48,497 nt of DNA from Candidatus Bathyarchaeia archaeon (GTDB lineage: Archaea > Thermoproteota > Bathyarchaeia > Bathyarchaeales > Bathycorpusculaceae). Below are positions 1 through 44,520 of the stretch, piece after piece. The position numbers and the translations under genes were made by a program. Location: positions 1-48,497 of the forward strand of contig JAVZLS010000012.1 of the NCBI GenBank assembly GCA_038883715.1, in the 5' to 3' direction. The first letter of the stretch is position 1. Each line of letters starts with the position of its first letter. The notes under the pieces were generated by a model, which was given only the letters and a program-made list of their open reading frames with translations, had not been told where the DNA came from and ran no database searches.

Positions 1-1283
1 GCCTTTTCCGGGCTTTTCCTCAATTTTTTCCCAATTCCGAAAAAAACGCCTCCGAGAAGCCTGTTTAAGCGAAAAAGAAACGTGAACCATTTCGCCCTTG
101 CTCTATTGAGTAGGCTTTGCTTTGTTGCCTTCTTTTCCTCTTCTTCTGTAGCTTCCTTTTTAGCCCAAAATATTGCTTTTCCTTTGAGAAATTTCCTTTT
201 CTTAATCTCTTCCTGGGTTGTTTCCCCCTTTTTCTCGAACTCAAAAACTTTCTTGAGGTTGGCCGTGAAGACCTCTCTAATCTCTTCTGGTGATGCGGGT
301 TCTAGGAATCCCCCCTCCCTTGTTCTGTGGCTTAGGGCAAGCTCAGCAGCCACCAAAACATCATTCATCGTTACCTCTGTCCTATTTTCAAAGGCTGCCA
401 AGGCAGCGGCTGCTTTTGCAATAACGATGTCTGGGCGTAAACCGTCAACTTTAAGTTCCAAGCATGCCTTGCATATTCCCTCTAAAACCTTGTCTGGGAT
501 GACAACCTTTTCAAGGATTTTTCTAGCTTGAAGTATCCTCTCACGAAGTTCCTCTTGTGATGGCTTGTATTTTTCATAAAACTTTTCCGGGTCTGCCTCA
601 AATTCCAAATTTCTTTTAACTATTTCCATCCGGTCTTCAACAGAAGTTATTCTCTCAACGGTTACGGATAATGGAAACCTATCCAAAAGTTGTGGTCTCA
701 ACTCTCCCTCTTCAGGATTCATAGTTCCCACAAATATGAATCGGGATGGATGTTGAACAGATATCCCTTCCCTTTCAACAACATTCCACCCTGTGGCAGC
801 GGCATCAAGCAGATCGTCAGCTATGTGATCCGGTAGTAGGTTCACCTCATCCACGTAGAGGATGTTCTGGTTTGCCTCCGCAAGGATTCCGGGTTCAAGC
901 GCTTCTATGCCGTACTTTATAGCTTTTTCCACGTCTAAACTTCCAACAACCCTATCCTCTGTTGAGCCGAGGGGCAAGTCGACAACAACCATGTCCCGCT
1001 CTTCCACTGGCAGATTTTCACCATTTCTCCATCTTTCACTACATTTTGGACACATGTTAGAGGGATCATAAGGATTACAGTTGAATGGGCAGTCCTTAAC
1101 AACACTTATTTTTGGAAGAATGTCAGCCAAAGCCCTCACAATAGTGCTTTTCCCGGAACCCTTCGGCCCCCTAATCAGCAATCCACCAATCTTAGGGTTT
1201 ATTGCATTAAGCAATATCGCCAGTTTAAGCTTGTCTAAGCCCACAATGGCCGAGAAGGGGAAAACAAGTCTCTTCCTTTCCAC
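1..1283 (-). CDS. Mg-chelatase ChlI/ChlD-like AAA+ ATPase (3' end runs off the window)
   Basis: Hand translation from GTG at 1283: VFPFSAIVG, Walker [28 protein letters not shown], Walker [28 protein letters not shown]. The frame is open to the left edge, so it is missing from the ORF track. Confidence 0.9.
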
Positions 1284-6160: not shown

Positions 6161-8380
6161 TTACTCTTCTTCGCAGAACTCTTCTGGTCTTGGCGGTGTT
6201 GGCGGCAAGCCTTTACGTTCTCTTATTTGCCTTATGACCTCTGCCTGCATCGATTCAGGCACTGGTGCCCATCGGCTGAACTGAGTTGCCCAGAAAGCTC
6301 TTCCCTGCGTTGAGGAGCGGAGTTCATCGGCTATTCCGAAGGACTCTGCCACTGGCAGCTCCGCCTTCACAATGACCATATCCTCTTCGTTGACCATGTC
6401 CAAGATTTTGCCCCGACGCTTCTGCAAAAGCGTAATGACAGGGCTTACGAAGTCGTTGGGGACCTTGCATTCGAAGCTTAGGATGGGCTCTAGAAGTTTT
6501 GGTTCGCTTAAGAGGAAGGAGCCCCAAATTGGACGCCAGGTCATGGGCAGAATCTGGGCTGGTCCGCGGTGAACTGGATCCTCATGGATGAGGATGTCTT
6601 CAAGGTTTACTTTTAGCCCGTACATGGGTTCCTTCGCCAAGACACCGGTGGCAACGGCATCTCTAAAGCCAGACCGCACATGGTCTAGCACTTCTTCCAC
6701 ATACTGCCTACCCTTAATCCTGTTAACCAATATGTTTGTGCCTTCTATGGCAATTACGTTGCGGGCGTCTTCAGTCGACCAGCCGAACTCCTTCATTAAA
6801 ATTTTCTGGCGTTCATCACGGGTTTGCATCTCATTAATCTTGCCCGTCTTAATAGCCTCTATAACTTCTGGCTGAAGCCTCTCAACCGTCACCCAAAGCC
6901 TATTATGCTTGTTGGGGCTTTTGCCCATAACTGGCGGACCCTTATAATCGCGGCTTATAGTTTCACGGTAAATCACTATGGGCTTACTCATCCTAACCTT
7001 TAGGCCGGCCTCCTGCATGCGGTAGGCTGTAACCTCCAAGTGGAGTTCTCCCATGCCGCTGAGCAAGTACTGCCCACTTTCCTTGTCTATCTTAAAGTGC
7101 AAGTTTGGATCTTCAAGCGTAAGCTTATGAATGACTTTATCGAATAATGGAAGATCTTTAACGTCTTCCGGCTCAACAGCCACTGTGACAACTGGGTCTG
7201 AAACATACTTTAGGGCTTCGAAGGGTGCTGTTTCAACGCCCTCTTCAGCTATTGTTTCGCCCACGTGGATGGATGGCAAACCAGAAAGAGCTGCAATGTT
7301 TCCAGCTGGAATTCTCTCAACTATGACTCTGTCTGTTGCCATGCTCATGTAAACCTGTTGTATGCTTCCTTTCTGGCGGCTTGTCACGAGGCGGACAGTT
7401 TTACCCTTCTCAACAGTGCCGCTGAAAACCCTACCGATGGCAACAACACCACTGTGAGGGTCAACCTCAATGAAGGTTATACACATCAAAAGCGGCCCGT
7501 TCGGATCAACCTTAGCCATAGCCTTGCCAACAGGGCTGTTTATGTCGCCGGGCCATATTTGGCTCTGCCTGTAGGGTTGCGCCTCGATGGGGCTTGGGAG
7601 GTGCTCGCAGAACATGTCCAAAACTGGCTCGTAGACGGGTATGCGTTTGCTTAGGGCTTCCACCTTTCGCCCGATTTCTTCAGGCTCGCCGGTATAAGCG
7701 TCAATAATGTCTTTAAAGGTTATGCCCTTAGCCTTCATGTGGGGTAGGTTTAAGCCCCACTTGTGGAGGGCGGAGCCAAAAGCGACACGTCCGTCTTCAA
7801 CCTTAACTTGCCAGTCCTTCTTATGTTCTGGCGGCGCATACTTTTCAATTATGCTGTTAATTCTCGTGATTATTCTCGCAAATTTCTTCTGAATCTCTTC
7901 TGGGGTTAGCTTCAACTCCCGGATTAGACGGTCAACCTTATTAATGAATAGTATTGGCTTCACACGTTCACGGAGGGCTTGCATCAAAACAGTTTCAGTC
8001 TGGGTCATGGGACCTTCAACAGCATCCACAACAACCAAAGCGCCGTCAACAGCCCTTAGGCTTCTTGTCACGTTTCCGCTGAAGTCTATGTGCCCCGGCG
8101 TGTCTATGAGGTTTATGAGGTAGTCAACGCCCTTAAAAGTGTGGACTAGGCTTATGTTAGAGGCGAAAACCGTCATCTGCCTCTTCTGTTCAAGCTCCCA
8201 AGAGTCAAGGAAAAGCTTCTGTCCAGCCACTTGCTCGCTTATTATGCCAGCAGCCGCCAAGAGACTATCTGAAAGTGTCGTCTTGCCATGGTCAACATGC
8301 GCAATTATGCTCGTGTTCCTTATCCTCTCAGTGTTATTCATAAGTTTAACTATATCTTCTATCTGCCTATAACGACCCAT
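6161..8380 (-). CDS. Elongation factor 2 paralogue (aEF-2p-like)
   Basis: AHVDHGKTT, DTPGH, NKVD, GSAL, GMGELHLE, HEDPVHRGPAQI; switch I reads RQMTV instead of RGITI. Confidence 0.9.
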   Translation of the reverse strand: MGRYRQIEDIVKLMNNTERIRNTSIIAHVDHGKTTLSDSLLAAAGIISEQVAGQKLFLDSWELEQKRQMTVFASNISLVHTFKGVDYLINLIDTPGHIDFSGNVTRSLRAVDGALVVVDAVEGPMTQTETVLMQALRERVKPILFINKVDRLIRELKLTPEEIQKKFARIITRINSIIEKYAPPEHKKDWQVKVEDGRVAFGSALHKWGLNLPHMKAKGITFKDIIDAYTGEPEEIGRKVEALSKRIPVYEPVLDMFCEHLPSPIEAQPYRQSQIWPGDINSPVGKAMAKVDPNGPLLMCITFIEVDPHSGVVAIGRVFSGTVEKGKTVRLVTSRQKGSIQQVYMSMATDRVIVERIPAGNIAALSGLPSIHVGETIAEEGVETAPFEALKYVSDPVVTVAVEPEDVKDLPLFDKVIHKLTLEDPNLHFKIDKESGQYLLSGMGELHLEVTAYRMQEAGLKVRMSKPIVIYRETISRDYKGPPVMGKSPNKHNRLWVTVERLQPEVIEAIKTGKINEMQTRDERQKILMKEFGWSTEDARNVIAIEGTNILVNRIKGRQYVEEVLDHVRSGFRDAVATGVLAKEPMYGLKVNLEDILIHEDPVHRGPAQILPMTWRPIWGSFLLSEPKLLEPILSFECKVPNDFVSPVITLLQKRRGKILDMVNEEDMVIVKAELPVAESFGIADELRSSTQGRAFWATQFSRWAPVPESMQAEVIRQIRERKGLPPTPPRPEEFCEEE

Positions 8381-8603
8381 AGCTAAACATACCCCACACT
8401 AACCAAAAGCTTGAAAACTGGATGTTGCCTGCATAGTTTCCAGCAAACATTACTGTCCACTGCCAGAGTTAGGCTACATGCAAATGAAAACTGAACCATA
8501 TTAACTTTTTGCATGAAATCCACAAGACTTTTAAGACCACGAGAAACCCTTGTTTCTTGAAACTTGTAAGTTATTTGAAAGTCCAGCGTCCGGGGATTCT
8601 GTC

Positions 8604-10814
8604 TTGCCAAGGTTTAGGCAAACCAGCGAAATTCTCAAGCTTATGCATAGAAAGGAGGATATCCGCAACATTGGCATAATAGCCCACATAGACCATGGAA
8701 AAACAACTATGACGGATTCTCTTTTGGCTGAGGCTGGCTTACTTTCGCCCAGAATAGCCGGAGAGGCCCGGGCTTTGGACTATTTGGAGGAGGAACAGAA
8801 GCGTGGAATTACAATTAAGACGGCTAATATTTCGCTTTTGCATGAGATTGGCGGACGCCCATACGTCATAAACTTGGTTGATACGCCGGGGCATGTGGAC
8901 TTTACTGGTAAGGTTACGAGGGCTTTGAGGGCCATTGACGGTGCAGTGGTTGTCGTGGATGCTGTGGAGGAGGTTATGGTTCAAACAGAGACCGTGACGA
9001 GGCAAGCCTTAGAAGAGAGGGTTCGCCCAGTTCTATTCATTAACAAGGTTGACCGCTTAGTAAAGGAGTTAAGGCTTACCCAAAGCGAGATTCAGGACAA
9101 GTTTACGCGGATTATCAGAGACTTCAACAACCTAATAGAGCTTTATGGAGAGCCAGACTTCAAGGAAAAGTGGAAGGTTGACCCTCAAAAGGAGACGGTG
9201 GCTTTTGGTTCTGCGTTGCACCGTTGGGGCTTTACACTAAAAATTGCACAGGAGAAGAACATCAAAATCAGCGACGTAATGGAGGCTTACATGCGAGGCG
9301 AACACCAAAAACTTGCACAGCTGATTCCGCTTCATAACGCCATTCTAGACATGGTGGTGAAAAACATTCCAAACCCCATAGAAGCCCAAAGGTATAGGCT
9401 GCCCAAAATATGGAAAGGCGACTTAACGTCTGAAATTGGGCAAGCCATGCTGAACTGCGACGACAACGGACCAACAGTCATGTGCATAACAATGGCGCAA
9501 ATGGACCCCCACGCTGGTTTGGTGGCAACTGGAAGGCTTTTCTCAGGTTCTGTTAAGGAGGGGGACCAGGTTTATCTGGTGGGTGCGCGCAAAGACTACC
9601 GCGTTCAGCAGGTTTCCATGTATATGGGCGCCTTCAGAGAAGTCGTTGACAAGATAGCGGCTGGGAATATTGCGGCGCTTTTGGGATTGGATTTGGCTAG
9701 GGCTGGGGAAACCCTTGTGGATTTAGCCCACAAAGACGTCATGGTTTCCTTTGAACGTATAAAGTATGTTTCAGAACCCGTCATAACAATTGCCATTGAA
9801 CCAAAACACCCAAAGGATTTGCCGCGTCTAGTGGACGCCATGAACAGACTCTCCATTGAAGACCCAAACCTTATAACCACCATAAACAGGGAAACGGGCG
9901 AGTATTTGCTGAGCGGAATGGGCGAGCTTCACCTCGAAATTGCCGTGAAATTCCTTCGGGATTATGGCGGCGGACTGGAAATCATAACCTCAACGCCAAT
10001 AGTGGTTTACCGGGAAAGCGTTGTCGGCAGAGGCGTAGTAGCCATGGCCAAAAGCCCCAACAAACACAACAGGTTCTGGGTTCAAGTTGAACCGCTGGAG
10101 GAGAGGGTTATAAACCTAATAGAGGCTGGTGAAATAGCCGAAGAAATGGGGAGAAAACAGATTGGAAACATACTCTTCAAGGAGGCTGGATGGCCAGCCG
10201 AGGAGGCGCGAAACATTCTGGCTATAGACGAGCACCGTAACATACTCATAGACGCGACAAAAGGCGTCCAATACCTAGGAGAAGCTAGAGAAATGATTAT
10301 TGCCGGTTTTAGGTGGGCTTGCAGGGCTGGACCACTGTGCGAGGAACCCATCCGAGGAGTGAAAGTCAAGCTTATGGACGCCCAACTCCACGAGGATCCA
10401 GTTCACCGCGGACCAGCACAAATTATGCCAGCCATTCGCCGTGCAATCTTAGGCTCTTTTTTGACGGCTAAACCAGTGCTTCTGGAACCCGTTTATAAGA
10501 TTGGAGTTTCTGTTCCAGCTCAATGGGTTGGGGATTGCATAAGCATAATAACCCGGAAAAGGGGGAAAATACTGGCTTCGGAGCAGAGGGGCATCCTAAC
10601 GATGATTGCTGGTTATATTCCAGTGGCTGAAACCTTTGGATTGTCGGCTGAGATGCGCTCAGCCACTTCTGGGCATGCTTTTTGGCAATGCACTTTCGAC
10701 CATTGGGAAAGGGTTCCAGAAAACATAGCCTCAGAAGTTGTTAGGCGAATACGCGAAAGAAAGGGGCTATCACCAGAAAAGCCGACGCCGGACATGTTCA
10801 TAGACGAAGAATAA
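8604..10814 (+). CDS. fusA: Translation elongation factor 2 (canonical type)
   Basis: AHIDHGKTT, EEEQKRGITI, DTPGHVDF, NKVD, diphthamide loop HEDPVHRGPAQI. TTG at 8604 (MPRFRQ...) chosen because it aligns with the paralogue's MGRYRQ. Confidence 0.93.
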   Translation: MPRFRQTSEILKLMHRKEDIRNIGIIAHIDHGKTTMTDSLLAEAGLLSPRIAGEARALDYLEEEQKRGITIKTANISLLHEIGGRPYVINLVDTPGHVDFTGKVTRALRAIDGAVVVVDAVEEVMVQTETVTRQALEERVRPVLFINKVDRLVKELRLTQSEIQDKFTRIIRDFNNLIELYGEPDFKEKWKVDPQKETVAFGSALHRWGFTLKIAQEKNIKISDVMEAYMRGEHQKLAQLIPLHNAILDMVVKNIPNPIEAQRYRLPKIWKGDLTSEIGQAMLNCDDNGPTVMCITMAQMDPHAGLVATGRLFSGSVKEGDQVYLVGARKDYRVQQVSMYMGAFREVVDKIAAGNIAALLGLDLARAGETLVDLAHKDVMVSFERIKYVSEPVITIAIEPKHPKDLPRLVDAMNRLSIEDPNLITTINRETGEYLLSGMGELHLEIAVKFLRDYGGGLEIITSTPIVVYRESVVGRGVVAMAKSPNKHNRFWVQVEPLEERVINLIEAGEIAEEMGRKQIGNILFKEAGWPAEEARNILAIDEHRNILIDATKGVQYLGEAREMIIAGFRWACRAGPLCEEPIRGVKVKLMDAQLHEDPVHRGPAQIMPAIRRAILGSFLTAKPVLLEPVYKIGVSVPAQWVGDCISIITRKRGKILASEQRGILTMIAGYIPVAETFGLSAEMRSATSGHAFWQCTFDHWERVPENIASEVVRRIRERKGLSPEKPTPDMFIDEE

Positions 10815-39030: not shown

Positions 39031-39151
39031 ACCATCCACCCTTTTTATTCTTTTATGGTTTTCCCTTCGGGGTTATTGAAGGGTTAGTCTTATTAGTGGC
39101 TTTGTTATTATTTTGTATTGTCTGATTTGGATTCTGAGCTTGTGGTTTGCT

Positions 39152-39433
39152 ATGGCGGGGTATGGAGGGGGAAGGCGTAGGCGGAGTCGGGTTGAGGTTA
39201 TCATTGAGATTTTGAGTGAGGCTTTGAATGGTGCTAATAAGACTAGGCTTATGTATCGTTGTAATTTGAATTTTGGGCGTTTTAACCGTTATTTGAAGGA
39301 GTTGTTAGACGCCGGCTTGCTGGAGCAAGTGGCTACCAATCCGGAGACGGGACTGATTTTGTACAGGACTACTGCTAAGGGGCGGGAGCTTCTAAAAATT
39401 TTGGAGATGGCTGGCGAGTTTCTTTCCGTTTAG
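39152..39433 (+). CDS. Archaeal winged-helix transcription regulator
   Basis: RRSRVEVIIEIL, KTRLMYRCNLN, YLKELLDAGLL, YRTTAKGRELL. Confidence 0.88.
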   Translation: MAGYGGGRRRRSRVEVIIEILSEALNGANKTRLMYRCNLNFGRFNRYLKELLDAGLLEQVATNPETGLILYRTTAKGRELLKILEMAGEFLSV

Positions 39434-39439
39434 CCTATT

Positions 39440-39850
39440 TTAGTGAATTTTGTTTATTGCTATTTCGTTTAGTTTTTTGTTTATTCGGATTTCTAGTTCT
39501 AGGCTTGTGTCTGTTAGGTTTGTTATGCGGGTGCATTGGATTATTAGGGATTTTTGGGGTGGGATTATTATGGTGCCTATGGCTGTGGCTGCTGGTGCGG
39601 TTTCTTGCTGTGTCTGTGCTTGTGCTGTGTTTGGTGTTTCTTTTTGGTTTATTATTAGGGTTTTCCAGTTTTGGTTTAGTTTTATCTGGTTTGTTGTGGG
39701 GTTGTGTTGTATCATGTCTGCCTCTGTTAGGAACTCCACTATTTTTTGGGCTTTTTCTGGTGGAATTTGGAGGGTTTCCGCGACTTCTTTTATGTTGTGC
39801 CATAAGTTGTCGTCAAGTAGGGCTAACAGTTTTTCCAGTTTTGTTGACAA
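39440..39850 (-). CDS. Winged-helix protein with a small C-terminal beta domain
   Basis: LLALLDDNLWHNIKEVAETLQIPPEKAQKIVEFLTEADMI HTH pattern; divergent from the fibre operon. Confidence 0.7.
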   Translation of the reverse strand: MSTKLEKLLALLDDNLWHNIKEVAETLQIPPEKAQKIVEFLTEADMIQHNPTTNQIKLNQNWKTLIINQKETPNTAQAQTQQETAPAATAIGTIIIPPQKSLIIQCTRITNLTDTSLELEIRINKKLNEIAINKIH

Positions 39851-39894: not shown

Positions 39895-40025
39895 TTGTTT
39901 ATAAACGGTTAAGGTCTTTTAGGCTAGACTATTAGTCTGGTTTTAGGTTTTTGTTCGTATGGTTTTGTTATAGTCTTTTGGTCTAGATTATTGTTTCATG
40001 GGGATTTATATGGAGTGACGTCAAA
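39895..40025. promoter_or_regulatory. Divergent promoter region with TATA boxes and palindromes
   Basis: TTTATAAA near 39898-39905, AGACT-att-AGTCT at 39926-39938, TTTATA at 40005-40010, TGACGTCA at 40016-40023. Confidence 0.5.
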
Positions 40026-40144: not shown

Positions 40145-40819
40145 ATGGATAAGAAAGTAATGGCAACGTTTGCATTGTTGATTGTGGCTTTGAGTGTTAT
40201 AGGATTTGCGTATGCCCATTGGAGTGGTCAACTTTATATTGAAGGCACCGTGAATATGGGTGAGCTTATCTTTGGATTTACAACATGCGGACCGTGCGGC
40301 GATGGCAAGATGGTGGATGGTAGAATTGTGACGCCGGAACCCAAAGACATTGGAGAAATCACTTGTAATCTGTTGGAACCTGAAACAAGTGTGCATTTGC
40401 CACAGCCAAAGACTGTGTATAAGAAGTTGAACATCACTATTACTAAGGCTTATCCGGAGTACGTAGCCTGGTGCAATTTCACACTTGACAACGGCGGAAC
40501 CATACCATTAGACGTGTACATGTACTGCGTGACAGTAAACACTGGCGATGGGCTTAGGTGGCACTGGAAATGGGTCGATGGATTGGGATGGATGATAGAA
40601 GGTTTCAAGGATTTAAATGAGAACGGTGAATGGGACGAAGGCGAACCAATTCTGATCAACATTTGGTTTGAGCCGATGTTCTTTGGACAAATTGACCCAT
40701 GCGAATCGAAGAACAGTAGAATATACATTCACATCAAAGAGCCAGCGGAACCATGCCACACCTACAAGTTCGAAATAAGCATCACAGCCTATCAGTGGAA
40801 CTGGGAAAATCTCGATTAA
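40145..40819 (+). CDS. Secreted TasA/CalY-like fibre subunit 1 with SipW-type signal peptide
   Basis: MDKK-hydrophobic-GFAYA|HWSGQLYIEGTVNMG; ITKAYPEY..FTLDNGGTIP; IHIKEPAEPCHTYKFEISI; no TM anchor. Confidence 0.75.
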   Translation: MDKKVMATFALLIVALSVIGFAYAHWSGQLYIEGTVNMGELIFGFTTCGPCGDGKMVDGRIVTPEPKDIGEITCNLLEPETSVHLPQPKTVYKKLNITITKAYPEYVAWCNFTLDNGGTIPLDVYMYCVTVNTGDGLRWHWKWVDGLGWMIEGFKDLNENGEWDEGEPILINIWFEPMFFGQIDPCESKNSRIYIHIKEPAEPCHTYKFEISITAYQWNWENLD

Positions 40820-40833
40820 GGAGGATGATTGAT

Positions 40834-41481
40834 ATGCATGCAAGTAAAAAGTTGATTGCCTTACCGCTTCTCTTTGCAATAGCACTATCCATAGCTGGCT
40901 TCGCATACGCTACTTGGTCGGACAAAATTTACATTAACGGAAGGATTGAAATGTGCGGCTTTAGTGTAGGCTTTGATTATGCGGAAACACCGTCTCCAGT
41001 TGAAAAGTACTGGGACAAGACGCTAAAACAATGGATGCCAGGCGAAGCAGAAGGAAAAGACGTCGGGAAAGTGGCTGCCTATTATGATCCTGAATCCCTG
41101 TACATAGACAAGCACACAGGAAAACAGGGATACAAAAAGATGATTGTCGAATTAACTAACGCATATCCATGCTACGCAGCCTTCGTCACCTTCAAAATAA
41201 ACAACACAGGACAATTAGCAGTTGACGTAACTGGCTACACAGTATCCGACCCAACAGGAACTCTCACCTTCACATACAACGCAGCTTCGGGGTGGTGGGA
41301 AGGAAGAGACGCTGACGGAAAACTGGTGTTAACCGTTAGAGTGGTAAACAATATTCCATTCCAGCTTGACGCTTGCCACGCTGAAAAGATGGAGATAGAC
41401 ATCCACGTAGAACAGAACGCATTAGAGTGCCACACCTACAAGTTCAGCGTTACCATAAACTACGAACAATACGACCCATAA
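40834..41481 (+). CDS. Secreted TasA/CalY-like fibre subunit 2
   Basis: AGGAGG then ATG 40834; GFAYA|TWSDKIYINGRIEM; LTNAYPCY..FKINNTG; IHVEQNALECHTYKFSVTI. Confidence 0.75.
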   Translation: MHASKKLIALPLLFAIALSIAGFAYATWSDKIYINGRIEMCGFSVGFDYAETPSPVEKYWDKTLKQWMPGEAEGKDVGKVAAYYDPESLYIDKHTGKQGYKKMIVELTNAYPCYAAFVTFKINNTGQLAVDVTGYTVSDPTGTLTFTYNAASGWWEGRDADGKLVLTVRVVNNIPFQLDACHAEKMEIDIHVEQNALECHTYKFSVTINYEQYDP

Positions 41482-41511
41482 TCAAACGAAAACAGCACCA
41501 GCAATAACAAA

Positions 41512-41530
41512 CCTCCCCCATTTTTTGGGA
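41512..41530 (+). terminator. Candidate intra-operon terminator after subunit 2
   Basis: CCTCCCCCATTTTTTGGGA pyrimidine/T6 tract in the 83-bp gap before the peptidase. Confidence 0.4.
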
Positions 41531-41564
41531 ATTCAAAGTCTAAAATAAATTAGGAAAATAGAAT

Positions 41565-42887
41565 ATGTCCCGTAACACGATAACAGTATTAACCGTGCTC
41601 TTATCAGTATTCATAATTCTAAACATATACCAACCGGGCGGATTGACGGCTTATATTCTCCCATCCATCTGCTGGGCAACTGTAGCCATAACCACGTTAT
41701 ACATGTGCCGTTTTGAAAAAATCCGTTCATGGACAAATAAGCGGATAACCTTCATGGCACTGCTTGTGGCATTCTTTCAAATATTCATATTTATAGATGC
41801 TGGGCTAATAAACAGATTTGGAAGAAGCCCGTTACTATTTACACCAAGCGCACTAGCCTTAAACCTAACACTGGTAACGACAACCCTTCTTGGAATAGAA
41901 CTGTCAAGGGGATACCTAACAAAAAACCTAAACAACAGAAAACCGACACTAACGCTTTTAGCCATAACACTCTTGTACACCTTCATGAGCATATCCATAC
42001 TCGCCCTAATCAATTTCCAAGACCCCCTAGCTTGTACAAAATTCATAGGAGAAACCTTCCTACCGACCCTTGCTGAAAACCTATTAGCCACATACCTAGC
42101 CCTATTAAGCGGACCAGTGGCATCCCTAGCCTACCGAATACCACTACAAGCATTCTGGTGGTTCTCCCCAATCCTACCAGACCTCCCATGGGGCTACAAA
42201 TCCCTAATAGGCGTAATGACACCAACAATAGGCTTTATAGCCATAAACATGGCGACAAACCATAGAGACCTAAGAAAGGCAGGAATACCAAAACAGAGAA
42301 AACTAACAATAGAAAAGATAAAAAGCCGAAAATCCATCAAAGGCTGGCTAGCCATATCCGTTTTCCTCGTCCTAGCCGTCTGGACATCAACAGGCTTATT
42401 GGGTTTCACGCCCACAATAATCGCCAGCGGAAGCATGCAGCCAACGCTTAATCCAGGCGACATAGCCATAGTTATATCCACACCACCAAAAGCCATCCGA
42501 GTAGGCGACATAATCCAGTACAGAACTGCCCAAAGCCAAGAGCCAACCGTCCACCGCGTCATAGACAAATACGAGGCTGGAGGCATAACATGGTTCATAA
42601 CCCAAGGCGACGCCAACAACGCCCCAGACAACCCGATAAGCGAACAACAAGTGGTTGGCAAAGTAATATTTACAATCCCAAAGCTGGGCTGGGTAAGCAT
42701 ATACCTAAAAGAGTGCGCCGCCAACGCCTACAATTTCCTAACGGTAACGCTTCCAAAAGCCCTGACAGAAGGCGGCAAATTCATATTGACAAACAGCATC
42801 CCAATAACAGCCGCCCTAACCCTAACCGCATACACTTACCTCTTACTCACATATCATAAAACAACAAGAAAGGAGGAAAAAACATGA
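41565..42887 (+). CDS. sipW: SipW/Sec11-type signal peptidase I fused to an N-terminal multi-TM domain
   Basis: IASGSMQPTLNPGD (Ser), VGDIIQY, TVHRV (His), TQGDANNAPD, VVGKVIFTIPKLGW, preceded by about 280 aa of hydrophobic helices. Confidence 0.85.
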   Translation: MSRNTITVLTVLLSVFIILNIYQPGGLTAYILPSICWATVAITTLYMCRFEKIRSWTNKRITFMALLVAFFQIFIFIDAGLINRFGRSPLLFTPSALALNLTLVTTTLLGIELSRGYLTKNLNNRKPTLTLLAITLLYTFMSISILALINFQDPLACTKFIGETFLPTLAENLLATYLALLSGPVASLAYRIPLQAFWWFSPILPDLPWGYKSLIGVMTPTIGFIAINMATNHRDLRKAGIPKQRKLTIEKIKSRKSIKGWLAISVFLVLAVWTSTGLLGFTPTIIASGSMQPTLNPGDIAIVISTPPKAIRVGDIIQYRTAQSQEPTVHRVIDKYEAGGITWFITQGDANNAPDNPISEQQVVGKVIFTIPKLGWVSIYLKECAANAYNFLTVTLPKALTEGGKFILTNSIPITAALTLTAYTYLLLTYHKTTRKEEKT

Positions 42888-43765
42888 AAAAATTGCTAAC
42901 AGCGCTAGCCCTAACAATATTGACGCTAATGGTAATAAGTTACAGTTACGCATGCTTGAACGGCGGAATCCAAATAAACTGCTACTGCAACTGCGACGTC
43001 AAATTCACAAAAGTAACAACAAGCGACAACGAAATAGAAAAAAATGTAGCCACAACAACAGCCATAATAGAAGGATGCGACGCCGACACGATAAAAGTTT
43101 ACATAACAAACGGCTACCCATGCTATGAGGCTTACATAAACTACACAATCAAAAATGTAGGCTCCAGACCCGTACATTTTGACGGCCTAACAATAATAAA
43201 CCCAAACCCAGAAGCCCTAGAAATAACAACAACAAACCACACATGCATATGGCTTTCACCATGCGAAAAAATAAGCGGACTAACAAGAGTTCACATCCTT
43301 CAAACAGCAGAAGAATGCCATACATACACCTTCAAAATAAAAATAGGCTTAACATGCCAAAAATACTATCCACGCACAATAGGCTTCTGGAAAAACCAAT
43401 TCGACAAAGCCCTATCCAAAGCAGGCAAACCACAAATAGACCTAGACAGCCTTGAAAGCTTCCTAGACCAAATAAGCGCCCAATCACCAATCTACGAGTT
43501 CACAGGCACACGCAGAGAAAAATTCCAACAGGCTCTAAATATCCTCAGCCCGCCATGGTACTCAAACATGGAAGCAAAACTCAAAGCTCAACTTTTGGCG
43601 TTGTGGCTAAACTACGTGGCAGGGTGGACTGAAGGCTACACGTACAAAGGCATGACAGCATGGCAAATAATTCAAGGCTCAGAAAACGCCCTACTGAACA
43701 AGCAAACCTGGCGCTACGAATACTGGAAAAACATGTGCGACGGATTTAACAACCTAGGAGGATGA
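42884..43765 (+). CDS. Secreted minor subunit: TasA-like domain plus C-terminal helical domain
   Basis: SYSYA signal; ITNGYPCYEAYINYTIKNVG; VHILQTAEECHTYTFKI; then RTIGFWKN..AQLLALWLN..DGFNN; ATGA overlap with the peptidase. Confidence 0.72.
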   Translation: MKKLLTALALTILTLMVISYSYACLNGGIQINCYCNCDVKFTKVTTSDNEIEKNVATTTAIIEGCDADTIKVYITNGYPCYEAYINYTIKNVGSRPVHFDGLTIINPNPEALEITTTNHTCIWLSPCEKISGLTRVHILQTAEECHTYTFKIKIGLTCQKYYPRTIGFWKNQFDKALSKAGKPQIDLDSLESFLDQISAQSPIYEFTGTRREKFQQALNILSPPWYSNMEAKLKAQLLALWLNYVAGWTEGYTYKGMTAWQIIQGSENALLNKQTWRYEYWKNMCDGFNNLGG

Positions 43766-44520
43766 AGGAAATGAAAAGGTATAGGAGAAAAACTTCAATC
43801 AATAAAGCAGTAAGCCTTTGCTCCCTAACATTGCTGGTCGCCCTGGCAATAGTAGGCTACAGCTACTCCCACTGGACAGAAAACATCCACATACAAGGAA
43901 CAATAACAACAGCCAAACAAAAAATCGCAAGCGTCCGCATAATGAAAACCCTAAACGGCTCCTTCACAAACCCATACACAGGAAACGACACATCAACACC
44001 AACAAACCTAATCCACGTTGGAACTGAAACGAGTCCAGGATGGCCAACAAAATTCCAGTTAATAATCACCGTGGAAAACAATGGCACAGTGCCAATAACC
44101 GACGCCGTATTCGACGTAATTGAAAACACTGTTGAACCAATAAACGCCACACCTAGCAAAGGCACAATAGAATGGTACTACAACCACACCACAGGCGGCG
44201 AATACGTCCAAAACTTCCTAAAATGGACCATTGGAACACTAGCACCAAATGAAGTGGCAACGCTTGAAATATGGATACAAACCCTACGCAACCCCTCAGG
44301 AAAATACGAACCCACAAGCGAAAACCAACCCCTCGAAATCAACAGAGGCGCCAACATAACAGCCACCTCAGAATTAGGAAATCTCTTTGCACAAACAGGA
44401 AACATAACTCTCATAATCGTAGACGATGGCATTCCAGACAACAATCTAGCGGTAATAACACCATCATTGCCATATTCCACTCCATGGGCAAGCGATGCAA
44501 TAAAAGAATACACGCCTTAA
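43762..44520 (+). CDS. Secreted minor subunit with SipW-type N-terminus and DUF11/Ig-like body
   Basis: GYSYS|HWTENIHIQGTITTA; IITVENNG..VFDVI; LKWTIGTLAPNEVATLEI; ATGA overlap. Confidence 0.7.
   Translation: MKEMKRYRRKTSINKAVSLCSLTLLVALAIVGYSYSHWTENIHIQGTITTAKQKIASVRIMKTLNGSFTNPYTGNDTSTPTNLIHVGTETSPGWPTKFQLIITVENNGTVPITDAVFDVIENTVEPINATPSKGTIEWYYNHTTGGEYVQNFLKWTIGTLAPNEVATLEIWIQTLRNPSGKYEPTSENQPLEINRGANITATSELGNLFAQTGNITLIIVDDGIPDNNLAVITPSLPYSTPWASDAIKEYTP

Follow-up and report, generated by a model that had tools for sequence, protein, structure and literature searches.

We found that a five-gene locus (A to E) of a hot-spring archaeon, Candidatus Bathyarchaeia, is probably an AbpX-type extracellular fibre locus, a member of the TasA superfamily. 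The locus lies in a stretch of 48,497 nucleotides (the window; positions 1 to 48,497 of contig JAVZLS010000012.1, assembly GCA_038883715.1). Members of the Bathyarchaeia, most of them uncultured, abound in sediments and hot springs, and to our knowledge nothing is known about their cell-surface structures. The locus is a concrete candidate for how some Bathyarchaeia adhere to one another or to surfaces. It is genuine and complete by gene content, motifs, AbpX homology, linkage, motif exclusivity and the existence of natural fusions. Genes A, B, D and E (Table 1) encode proteins with a single hydrophobic segment at the N terminus and none further along, and C encodes a signal peptidase. The gap between A and B is 5 bases, and C/D and D/E overlap by ATGA. 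A first-pass annotation of this DNA had described four co-oriented, anchor-less secreted proteins with their own Ser/His signal peptidase, the last three genes coupled by ATGA overlaps, in a probable Bathyarchaeon. These points were borne out, the last by the labels of the closest named homologues, which fit a Bathyarchaeon host.

The assignment to AbpX came from profile searches against 177,635 distinct PDB sequences. The A-family profile matched AbpX of Pyrodictium abyssi and nothing else (9sj2_C, E 2.1e-6; 9rhp_A, E 8.6e-6), as did a profile built from 15 B-type sequences, B of the window and its 14 orthologues (E 9.3e-7 across 83 positions), and AbpX was also the best match of the D profile (E 7.7e-4). 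AbpX, which received its name in PMC12518558, forms a fibre whose structure has been solved (PDB 9sj2/9rhp; bioRxiv 10.64898/2026.01.04.697558). The block common to these proteins and AbpX reads I-t-I-x-(K/N)-A-Y-P..(F)-T-L-x-N-x-G-T-I-P, and the mature N terminus of AbpX, QWSETLSLSATISTGSL, aligns with the donor-strand motif hWsDevyiegtvemgsl. In AbpX, the residues described as critical lie in an amphipathic donor strand behind a signal peptidase I signal peptide: mature position 2 is aromatic and position 4 acidic (bioRxiv 10.64898/2026.01.04.697558). In the A-family alignment (24 rows, comprising 23 A homologues and B), mature position 2 was tryptophan in 24/24 rows and position 4 was aspartate in 20/24.

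The strand follows directly on a predicted signal peptidase site, which reads FAYA↓HWSGQLYIEGTV in A, FAYA↓TWSDKIYINGRI in B, YSYS↓HWTENIHIQGTI in E and SYA↓CLNGGIQINC in D (the arrow marks the predicted cut), so that the mature proteins would begin with HWSG, TWSD, HWTE and CLNG, respectively. In agreement with the first-pass annotation, which had given each pattern to three proteins, the cleavage pattern is common to A, B and E, and further motifs are common to A, B and D: ITKAYPEY..FTLDNGG, LTNAYPCY..FKINNTG and ITNGYPCY..YTIKNVG in the order of the genes, and HIxxxAxxCHTY(K/T)F. We scanned 3808 stop-free frames of at least 80 amino acids in the 1.33-Mb genome for [AGSV][YF][AS][HTAC][WL][STKFMN] after a hydrophobic 18-mer. 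The four matches genome-wide were A, B, D and E, with zero elsewhere; as the pattern was written from these four proteins, only the zero elsewhere is informative. All 33 homologues of A came from metagenomes, and none had a name or a Pfam family. Conserved in the alignment of 23 of them with B are the signal peptide, AYA↓HW(S/T)D, a strand of alternating pattern (I-x-I-x-G-x-V), NAYPEY, LDNGGTIP, QIDPC and AEECHTYxF. The AlphaFold2 model of A (mean confidence, pLDDT, 84.9) was all-beta with residues 25-42 as an unpaired coil, as would be expected of a strand that needs a partner.

With the models of A and D, Foldseek found no match in the PDB at E ≤ 1e-3, and other fold searches returned only generic immunoglobulin (Ig)/PapD-like sandwiches and carbohydrate-binding modules, with no AbpX chain among the matches listed. 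The case for kinship with AbpX is therefore one of sequence profiles and locus architecture and not of fold. One alternative explanation is that A, B, D and E are secreted surface or matrix proteins, for example monomeric envelope-associated adhesins or binding proteins, that need a dedicated peptidase without forming a strand-donation polymer. This would fit the generic folds, a sub-threshold Cbm74 match of B, the frequent occurrence of DUF11, the domain of E, among non-fibre surface proteins, and the fact that the polymer is inferred here from sequence. We nevertheless consider it unlikely: a conserved strand placed right after the cleavage site, invariant in its tryptophan and unpaired in the monomer model, has the look of a donor strand; the PDB holds no sequence relatives of A and B other than AbpX chains, and one of these entries is a fibre assembly; and paralogous subunits sharing one N-terminal motif, which are typical of fibre systems, occur in 18/21 related loci. 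Complex prediction for the mature forms of A and B, with an alignment for either chain, gave a median of 0.52, against 0.48 for a control in which chain 1 was replaced, a difference that speaks on neither side of the question of binding.

A and B represent two paralogous subunit types. A tree built from 35 subunits gave support of 97/93 to the B-type clade and of 86/85 to the A-type clade, with the subunits of three loci (L021, L023 and L024) in a group of their own. In 11 of the related loci the first gene scored best with A and the second with B. The first-pass annotation had proposed a Cys-rich filament. Across the A family only one Cys pair is conserved (C186 invariant, C204 nearly so), and because of this Cys-richness is a trait of this genome's A and D and not of the family. 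Unlike AbpX (163 amino acids), mature A and B are about 189-200 amino acids long, some 35-40 residues longer, with an acidic loop of the DxNxNG type. This conserved loop (DxNxNG..D; residues 155-167 of A, window 40607-40645; EDVNGNGxVD in B-type orthologues) resembles calcium-binding loops, and single family members match FG-GAP or TSP_3 weakly. Most of it is gone from the window's own B.

The first-pass annotation had called the locus a SipW/TasA-like fibre operon. The kind of system stands, in that these anchor-less secreted proteins are relatives of a donor-strand fibre protein of solved structure and have their own peptidase, but the nearest family is AbpX and not TasA/CalY. None of A, B, D and E matched the TasA/camelysin family of Pfam (PF12389, Peptidase_M73) at E ≤ 1; 2 of the 24 A-family members reached a sub-threshold E of 0.011. 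When all six frames of the genome were searched with PF12389, matches fell on one other contig, C15, and none at this locus. Alignment of the A and B profiles with the genome's two PF12389 proteins by hhalign gave 48% (E 1.8e-4) and 17%, too weak to use; the 48% similarity covers the signal peptide, the donor strand and the NxG motif. Members of PF12389 occurred in 4/151 genomes of the class.

The peptidase label of that Pfam family, together with the sub-threshold matches, raises another explanation, namely that the proteins are camelysin-like metalloproteases or metal-binding redox proteins in which the N-terminal His and the Cys-His of CHTY form a histidine brace. In favour of this, mature A and E both begin with His, the A family keeps His25 almost without exception, C204-H205 is conserved, and E matched AA9 at chance level (E 0.54). 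However, position 1 is Thr or Ala in several B-type orthologues, most D orthologues have NWQY in place of CHTY, no protease or lytic polysaccharide monooxygenase family was matched at a useful threshold, and the N-terminal segment of the A model is not packed against the sandwich. These features make a histidine-brace enzyme very improbable.

Consistent with a dedicated processing enzyme, C matched the archaeal signal peptidase I family TIGR02228 (97.9 bits; cut-off 51.85), and its catalytic residues, Ser290 of GSMxP, His330-Arg331 and Gly348-Asp349, were invariant in 17 aligned homologues. The SipW-type peptidase of the first-pass annotation did not hold: against the SipW equivalog NF046067, C scored 53.5 bits, below the cut-off of 190, and it is instead a polytopic archaeal enzyme. 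A hydropathy profile of 17 sequences gave about 9-10 helices (about 7+1+1 hydrophobic helices and a conserved SPILPDLPW segment). The N-terminal membrane domain belongs to no Pfam family, and its invariant residues include E112, S114, R115 and W199-SPILPDLPW209. We found 595 representatives of this domain at E ≤ 1e-3 and scanned 35 of them with Pfam: most relatives of 376-569 amino acids also held a Peptidase_S26 match, and 10/10 relatives of 217-300 amino acids, too short for a peptidase domain, had no family. Some long forms also carried DUF11, SdrD_B, CBM96, DUF5305 or LysM. Structural look-alikes in the ESM Atlas were fused and stand-alone unnamed membrane proteins and a CPBP/Rce1-like cluster at TM 0.64. 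The CPBP-type protease reading, a fold lead only, was rejected because the domain has no invariant His. The genome holds three signal peptidase I genes, so C is an extra one.

Peptidase and substrate-like module also occur as natural fusions. Of 10 long C homologues, 7 (five cluster representatives and two from Hadesarchaea loci) have a substrate-like module joined in frame to the peptidase, in the order C-terminal helix, basic linker, hydrophobic segment, AY(S/A)↓HWS(D/E/Q), donor strand and beta domain, a topology that is self-consistent. These proteins look like self-processing enzyme-substrate proteins, and they lend independent support, at the level of sequence, to the view that this type of peptidase acts on this type of signal peptide. 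As natural peptidase-substrate fusions they argue for the pairing independently of experiment. The available text of the AbpX preprint (bioRxiv 10.64898/2026.01.04.697558) contains no mention of them.

The conserved linkage of peptidase and subunits, which had been proposed as a check, was examined in 21 related loci. These came mostly from metagenome-assembled genomes (MAGs) of Bathyarchaeota/Bathyarchaeia, the other labels being Hadesarchaea (3), Culexmicrobium, Thermoprotei, Thermoproteales, Nitrososphaerota, Archaeoglobales, Thermoplasmata and Dehalococcoidia (1). A C homologue with both halves adjoins the subunit genes in 18/21 loci, so that the subunit pair and C are kept together; the remaining three (L019, L020 and L022) are cut off by the end of the contig, either no more than 0.7 kb downstream or in the second subunit gene itself. 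Full-length D was present in L008, L023 and L024, and full-length E in L024 and L010. In the locus labelled Dehalococcoidia bacterium (L009), the A- and B-type genes branch from within the Bathyarchaeota, on terminal branches 0.23-0.30 changes per site long, and the locus is either a mis-binned archaeal contig or a recent transfer to a bacterium.

D shares the subunit architecture in its N-terminal half. It aligned with the A family over residues 1-157 (hhalign 99.8%, E 1.5e-27), and its AlphaFold2 model (pLDDT 85.5) combined a sandwich with a confident six-helix domain (Table 1). For the helical domain no relative was detected in the PDB, and searches by fold brought up no specific match; it recurs within much longer frames (390-809 amino acids) in other genomes of the class. 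We found 221 homologues of D; the best 120 were listed, and the 119 non-self rows were 57-82% identical, a conservation far above that of the major subunits. E has only the signal peptide and donor strand in common with the other subunits, and its body is DUF11 (PF01345, 28.9 bits; cut-off 24.6), a domain also pre-computed on many of its 73 homologues. The alignment of E with the A family (hhalign 98.2%, E 4.5e-14) was strongest across the signal peptide and donor strand, and the E profile gave only chance matches in the PDB. D is therefore a candidate tip or base subunit and E a candidate strand-donating cap or nucleator.

D also gave the one lead towards type IV pilus-like or archaellum accessory proteins, in a weak match to UpsA (NF046073; 23 bits, E 6.8e-5) and in two Joint Genome Institute names, 'archaellum component FlaG', among the 120 homologues listed. 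We regard this origin as extremely improbable: the UpsA score is far under the cut-off of 130, (A/S)-Y-(A/S) after the hydrophobic core is a signal peptidase I site and not a class III site before the core, the linked enzyme is a signal peptidase I and no prepilin peptidase, and the locus has no ATPase or platform gene.

How an AbpX-type fibre might arise from these parts can be outlined. A and B, judging from their signal peptides, would be exported by the Sec pathway, and C would cut them after A-Y-A, as motif exclusivity, conserved linkage and the enzyme-substrate fusions suggest. By homology to AbpX, the freed N-terminal strand, x-W-(S/T)-(D/E)-x-I-x-I-x-G-x-V, would enter the open beta-sandwich of the next subunit, and such donor-strand complementation would build a thin matrix or adhesion fibre. 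D and E, bearing the same export and cleavage signal, would join as minor components: D as a tip or base piece, because it pairs a subunit-like sandwich with a helical domain, and E as a TapA-like cap or nucleator, because its donor strand sits on a DUF11 sandwich. Two genes upstream of A (R1 and R2) and a repeat in the R2/A spacer probably regulate the operon.

In a more elaborate version, which taken as a whole we hold to be unlikely, cleavage would be physically coupled to assembly. The seven-helix domain of C, with its membrane-embedded Glu-x-Ser-Arg and SPILPDLPW, would be an assembly platform that grips the fibre base during cleavage and strand insertion; A-type and B-type subunits, a pair retained from before these lineages diverged, would have to assemble together into one mixed fibre; D would be a base linked by lipid or disulfide through its near-invariant +1 Cys, whose site SYA↓C might be read as a lipobox; and the fusions would be self-priming versions.

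Several observations weigh against the locus being an AbpX-type fibre system. The similarity spans 65-83 of the 163 AbpX residues, and a single-sequence comparison of A with AbpX reached only E 0.05. A itself has Gly, and no acid, at mature position 4. AbpX is reported to have an isoelectric point (pI) of about 4 and about 15% Asp+Glu (bioRxiv 10.64898/2026.01.04.697558); the precursors of A (pI 4.69, 13.4%) and B (pI 5.09, 12.4%) are less acidic. DUF5305, frequent in published abpX loci, is not at this locus; the genome has one such gene, on contig C10 in an unrelated context. The A profile found members in 9/301 sampled genomes of the class and 5/152 high-quality ones, a patchiness which makes the system an accessory trait and not a lineage trait. 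Finally, the filament, the cleavage and the calcium-dependent polymerisation by strand donation that would be expected of an AbpX family member are predictions for these proteins.

We compared the locus with published systems. According to the AbpX preprint, abpX-like loci encode minor subunits, tip proteins, a dedicated signal peptidase I with ten transmembrane helices, DUF5305 proteins and transcription factors (bioRxiv 10.64898/2026.01.04.697558). The present locus shares with AbpX the x-W-S-(D/E) donor strand after a signal peptidase I site, the AYP..TLxNxGTIP block and the Cys pair, and with abpX loci the adjoining TIGR02228 peptidase of about ten helices, extra subunit-like genes, putative tip proteins and transcription factors. 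It differs in having A-type and B-type paralogues side by side in most loci, and neither the helical domain of D nor the DUF11 body of E has a counterpart in the available text of the preprint. The novelty suggested by the first-pass annotation was over-rated: AbpX-like loci were published in that preprint and foreshadowed in PMC12518558, so that this type of system dates from 2025-2026 and current views are not overturned. What the locus adds, besides extending the AbpX branch of the TasA superfamily into Bathyarchaeia, is two paralogous subunit types and the well-conserved D, whose helical domain lacks a detected relative. Bathyarchaeia are not mentioned in the available parts of PMC9245690, PMC12518558 and bioRxiv 10.64898/2026.01.04.697558, of which the last may list such loci in Table S3/Data S1, and our literature search found nothing relevant that links Bathyarchaeia to such fibres.

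Like tapA-sipW-tasA of Bacillus subtilis, in which TasA polymerises by donor-strand exchange (fibre PDB 8aur; PMC9674648, PMC10151520), the locus combines a secreted subunit, a dedicated signal peptidase and an accessory protein with a donor strand (TapA there, E here); unlike it, A, B, D and E score below PF12389, and C is no SipW equivalog and carries an additional membrane domain some 250 amino acids long. An analogous locus encodes the Tafi pili of haloarchaea (PDB 9p0a; PMC12337348). The AbpA bundling pili of Pyrobaculum calidifontis (PDB 7ueg) have no dedicated signal peptidase near the ABP operon, according to the available text of PMC9245690. As with AbpA, the host of the present system belongs to the Thermoproteota, and the product would be a donor-strand pilus of the TasA superfamily that has a TapA-like partner. 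AbpA did not match the subunits in sequence or structure searches of the PDB.

The same genome also carries a classical TasA/SipW-type locus (contig C15, L028 4055-6584, minus strand), with two PF12389 proteins (200 and 199 amino acids; 47.6 and 33.3 bits), a 188-amino-acid secreted protein and a small signal peptidase I of 215 amino acids (118 bits with TIGR02228). Two systems of the TasA superfamily, with a peptidase apiece, are thus encoded in this genome; the third signal peptidase I gene is on contig C1. The D profile found members in 13/301 sampled genomes of the class. A same-genus genome (G280, 97% complete) holds a decayed D fragment (contig C7, L038 8022-8513; 72-80% DNA identity, five stops), with none of A, B, C and E found nearby, which looks like loss of the locus in a sister species. 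DNA near-identical to the locus was present in hot-spring metagenomes of several studies.

Table 1. Features of the fibre locus and its surroundings. Positions are those of the window unless residues, loci or proteins are named.
Feature	Position	Strand	Length	Description
R1	39113-39433	+		winged-helix DNA-binding protein, Sso10a family/HTH_45; NF053610 73.5 bits (cut-off 60), PF14947 70.6 bits
R2	39440-39850	-	136 aa	divergent from A; sub-threshold DUF4423/TrmB/Rrf2 matches only, weak winged-helix signal
Direct repeat (two copies)	39908-39933 and 39967-39992		26 nt	in R2/A spacer; copies 81% alike; each holds GTCT-N8-AGAC
A	40145-40819	+	224 aa	AbpX-like fibre subunit precursor (putative)
A, parts	residues 1-24; ~25-42; 43-217			signal peptide, predicted cleavage AYA↓H25; donor strand; beta-sandwich
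B	40825-41481	+	218 aa	second, paralogous AbpX-like subunit precursor (putative); 35% identical to A
B, parts				predicted cleavage AYA↓T30; donor strand TWSDKIYINGRI
T6 tract	41521-41526	+		in 83-nt B/C spacer; read from sequence
C	41565-42887	+	440 aa	polytopic signal peptidase I
C, parts	N-terminal ~250 residues; 262-281; 264-387; ~403-425			membrane domain, ~7 helices; signal-anchor helix; Ser/His/Asp peptidase domain; C-terminal helix
D	42884-43765	+	293 aa	subunit-like beta-sandwich and six-helix C-terminal domain
D, parts	residues ~39-158; 166-289			sandwich; six-helix domain; Cys at +1 of predicted cleavage site
E	43762-44520	+	252 aa	DUF11 beta-sandwich protein with donor-strand motif
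Peptidase-substrate fusions	L015 1242-3113; L016 3902-5818; proteins P0229, P0232, P0233, P0234, P0236			in-frame fusions of C homologue and substrate-like module

Two of the gene starts deserve comment. The longest frame of B opens at 40753, and we placed its start at the ATG at 40825 because GGAGG directly precedes that codon. The copies of E in databases begin at an ATG 9 bases downstream (249 amino acids). The T6 tract may be a partial terminator that separates the subunit genes from C-D-E. In one RNA-seq library, contigs near-identical to 40337-41274 (A and B) were present and none fall on C, D or E; they are a weak hint of A/B expression at most. DNA carry-over is possible, and the uncovered C-E genes carry no weight.

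R1, retained next to the locus, is likely a regulator or chromatin protein; genes resembling it occur close to the subunits in L005, L006, L007, L008, L009, L012, L016, L018, L020, L023 and L025. R2 is a candidate local regulator, with homologues at the same position in 7/21 loci: L005, L006, L007, L008 (96% identical), L016 (weak), L020 and L023. The direct repeat is a candidate operator. Its 16-nucleotide core occurs three times in the window at ≤2 mismatches, compared with 0.55 expected, and also in the equivalent spacer of L008, the closest related locus.

Genes of core metabolism flank the locus: upstream are those for aldehyde ferredoxin oxidoreductase and a ferredoxin, downstream those for a hydrogenase maturation protease and for NiFe hydrogenase. 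No obvious mobile element surrounds it. Elsewhere in the window, two full-length EF-2/EF-G paralogues stand side by side in divergent orientation (6161-8380, minus strand; 8550-10814, plus strand).

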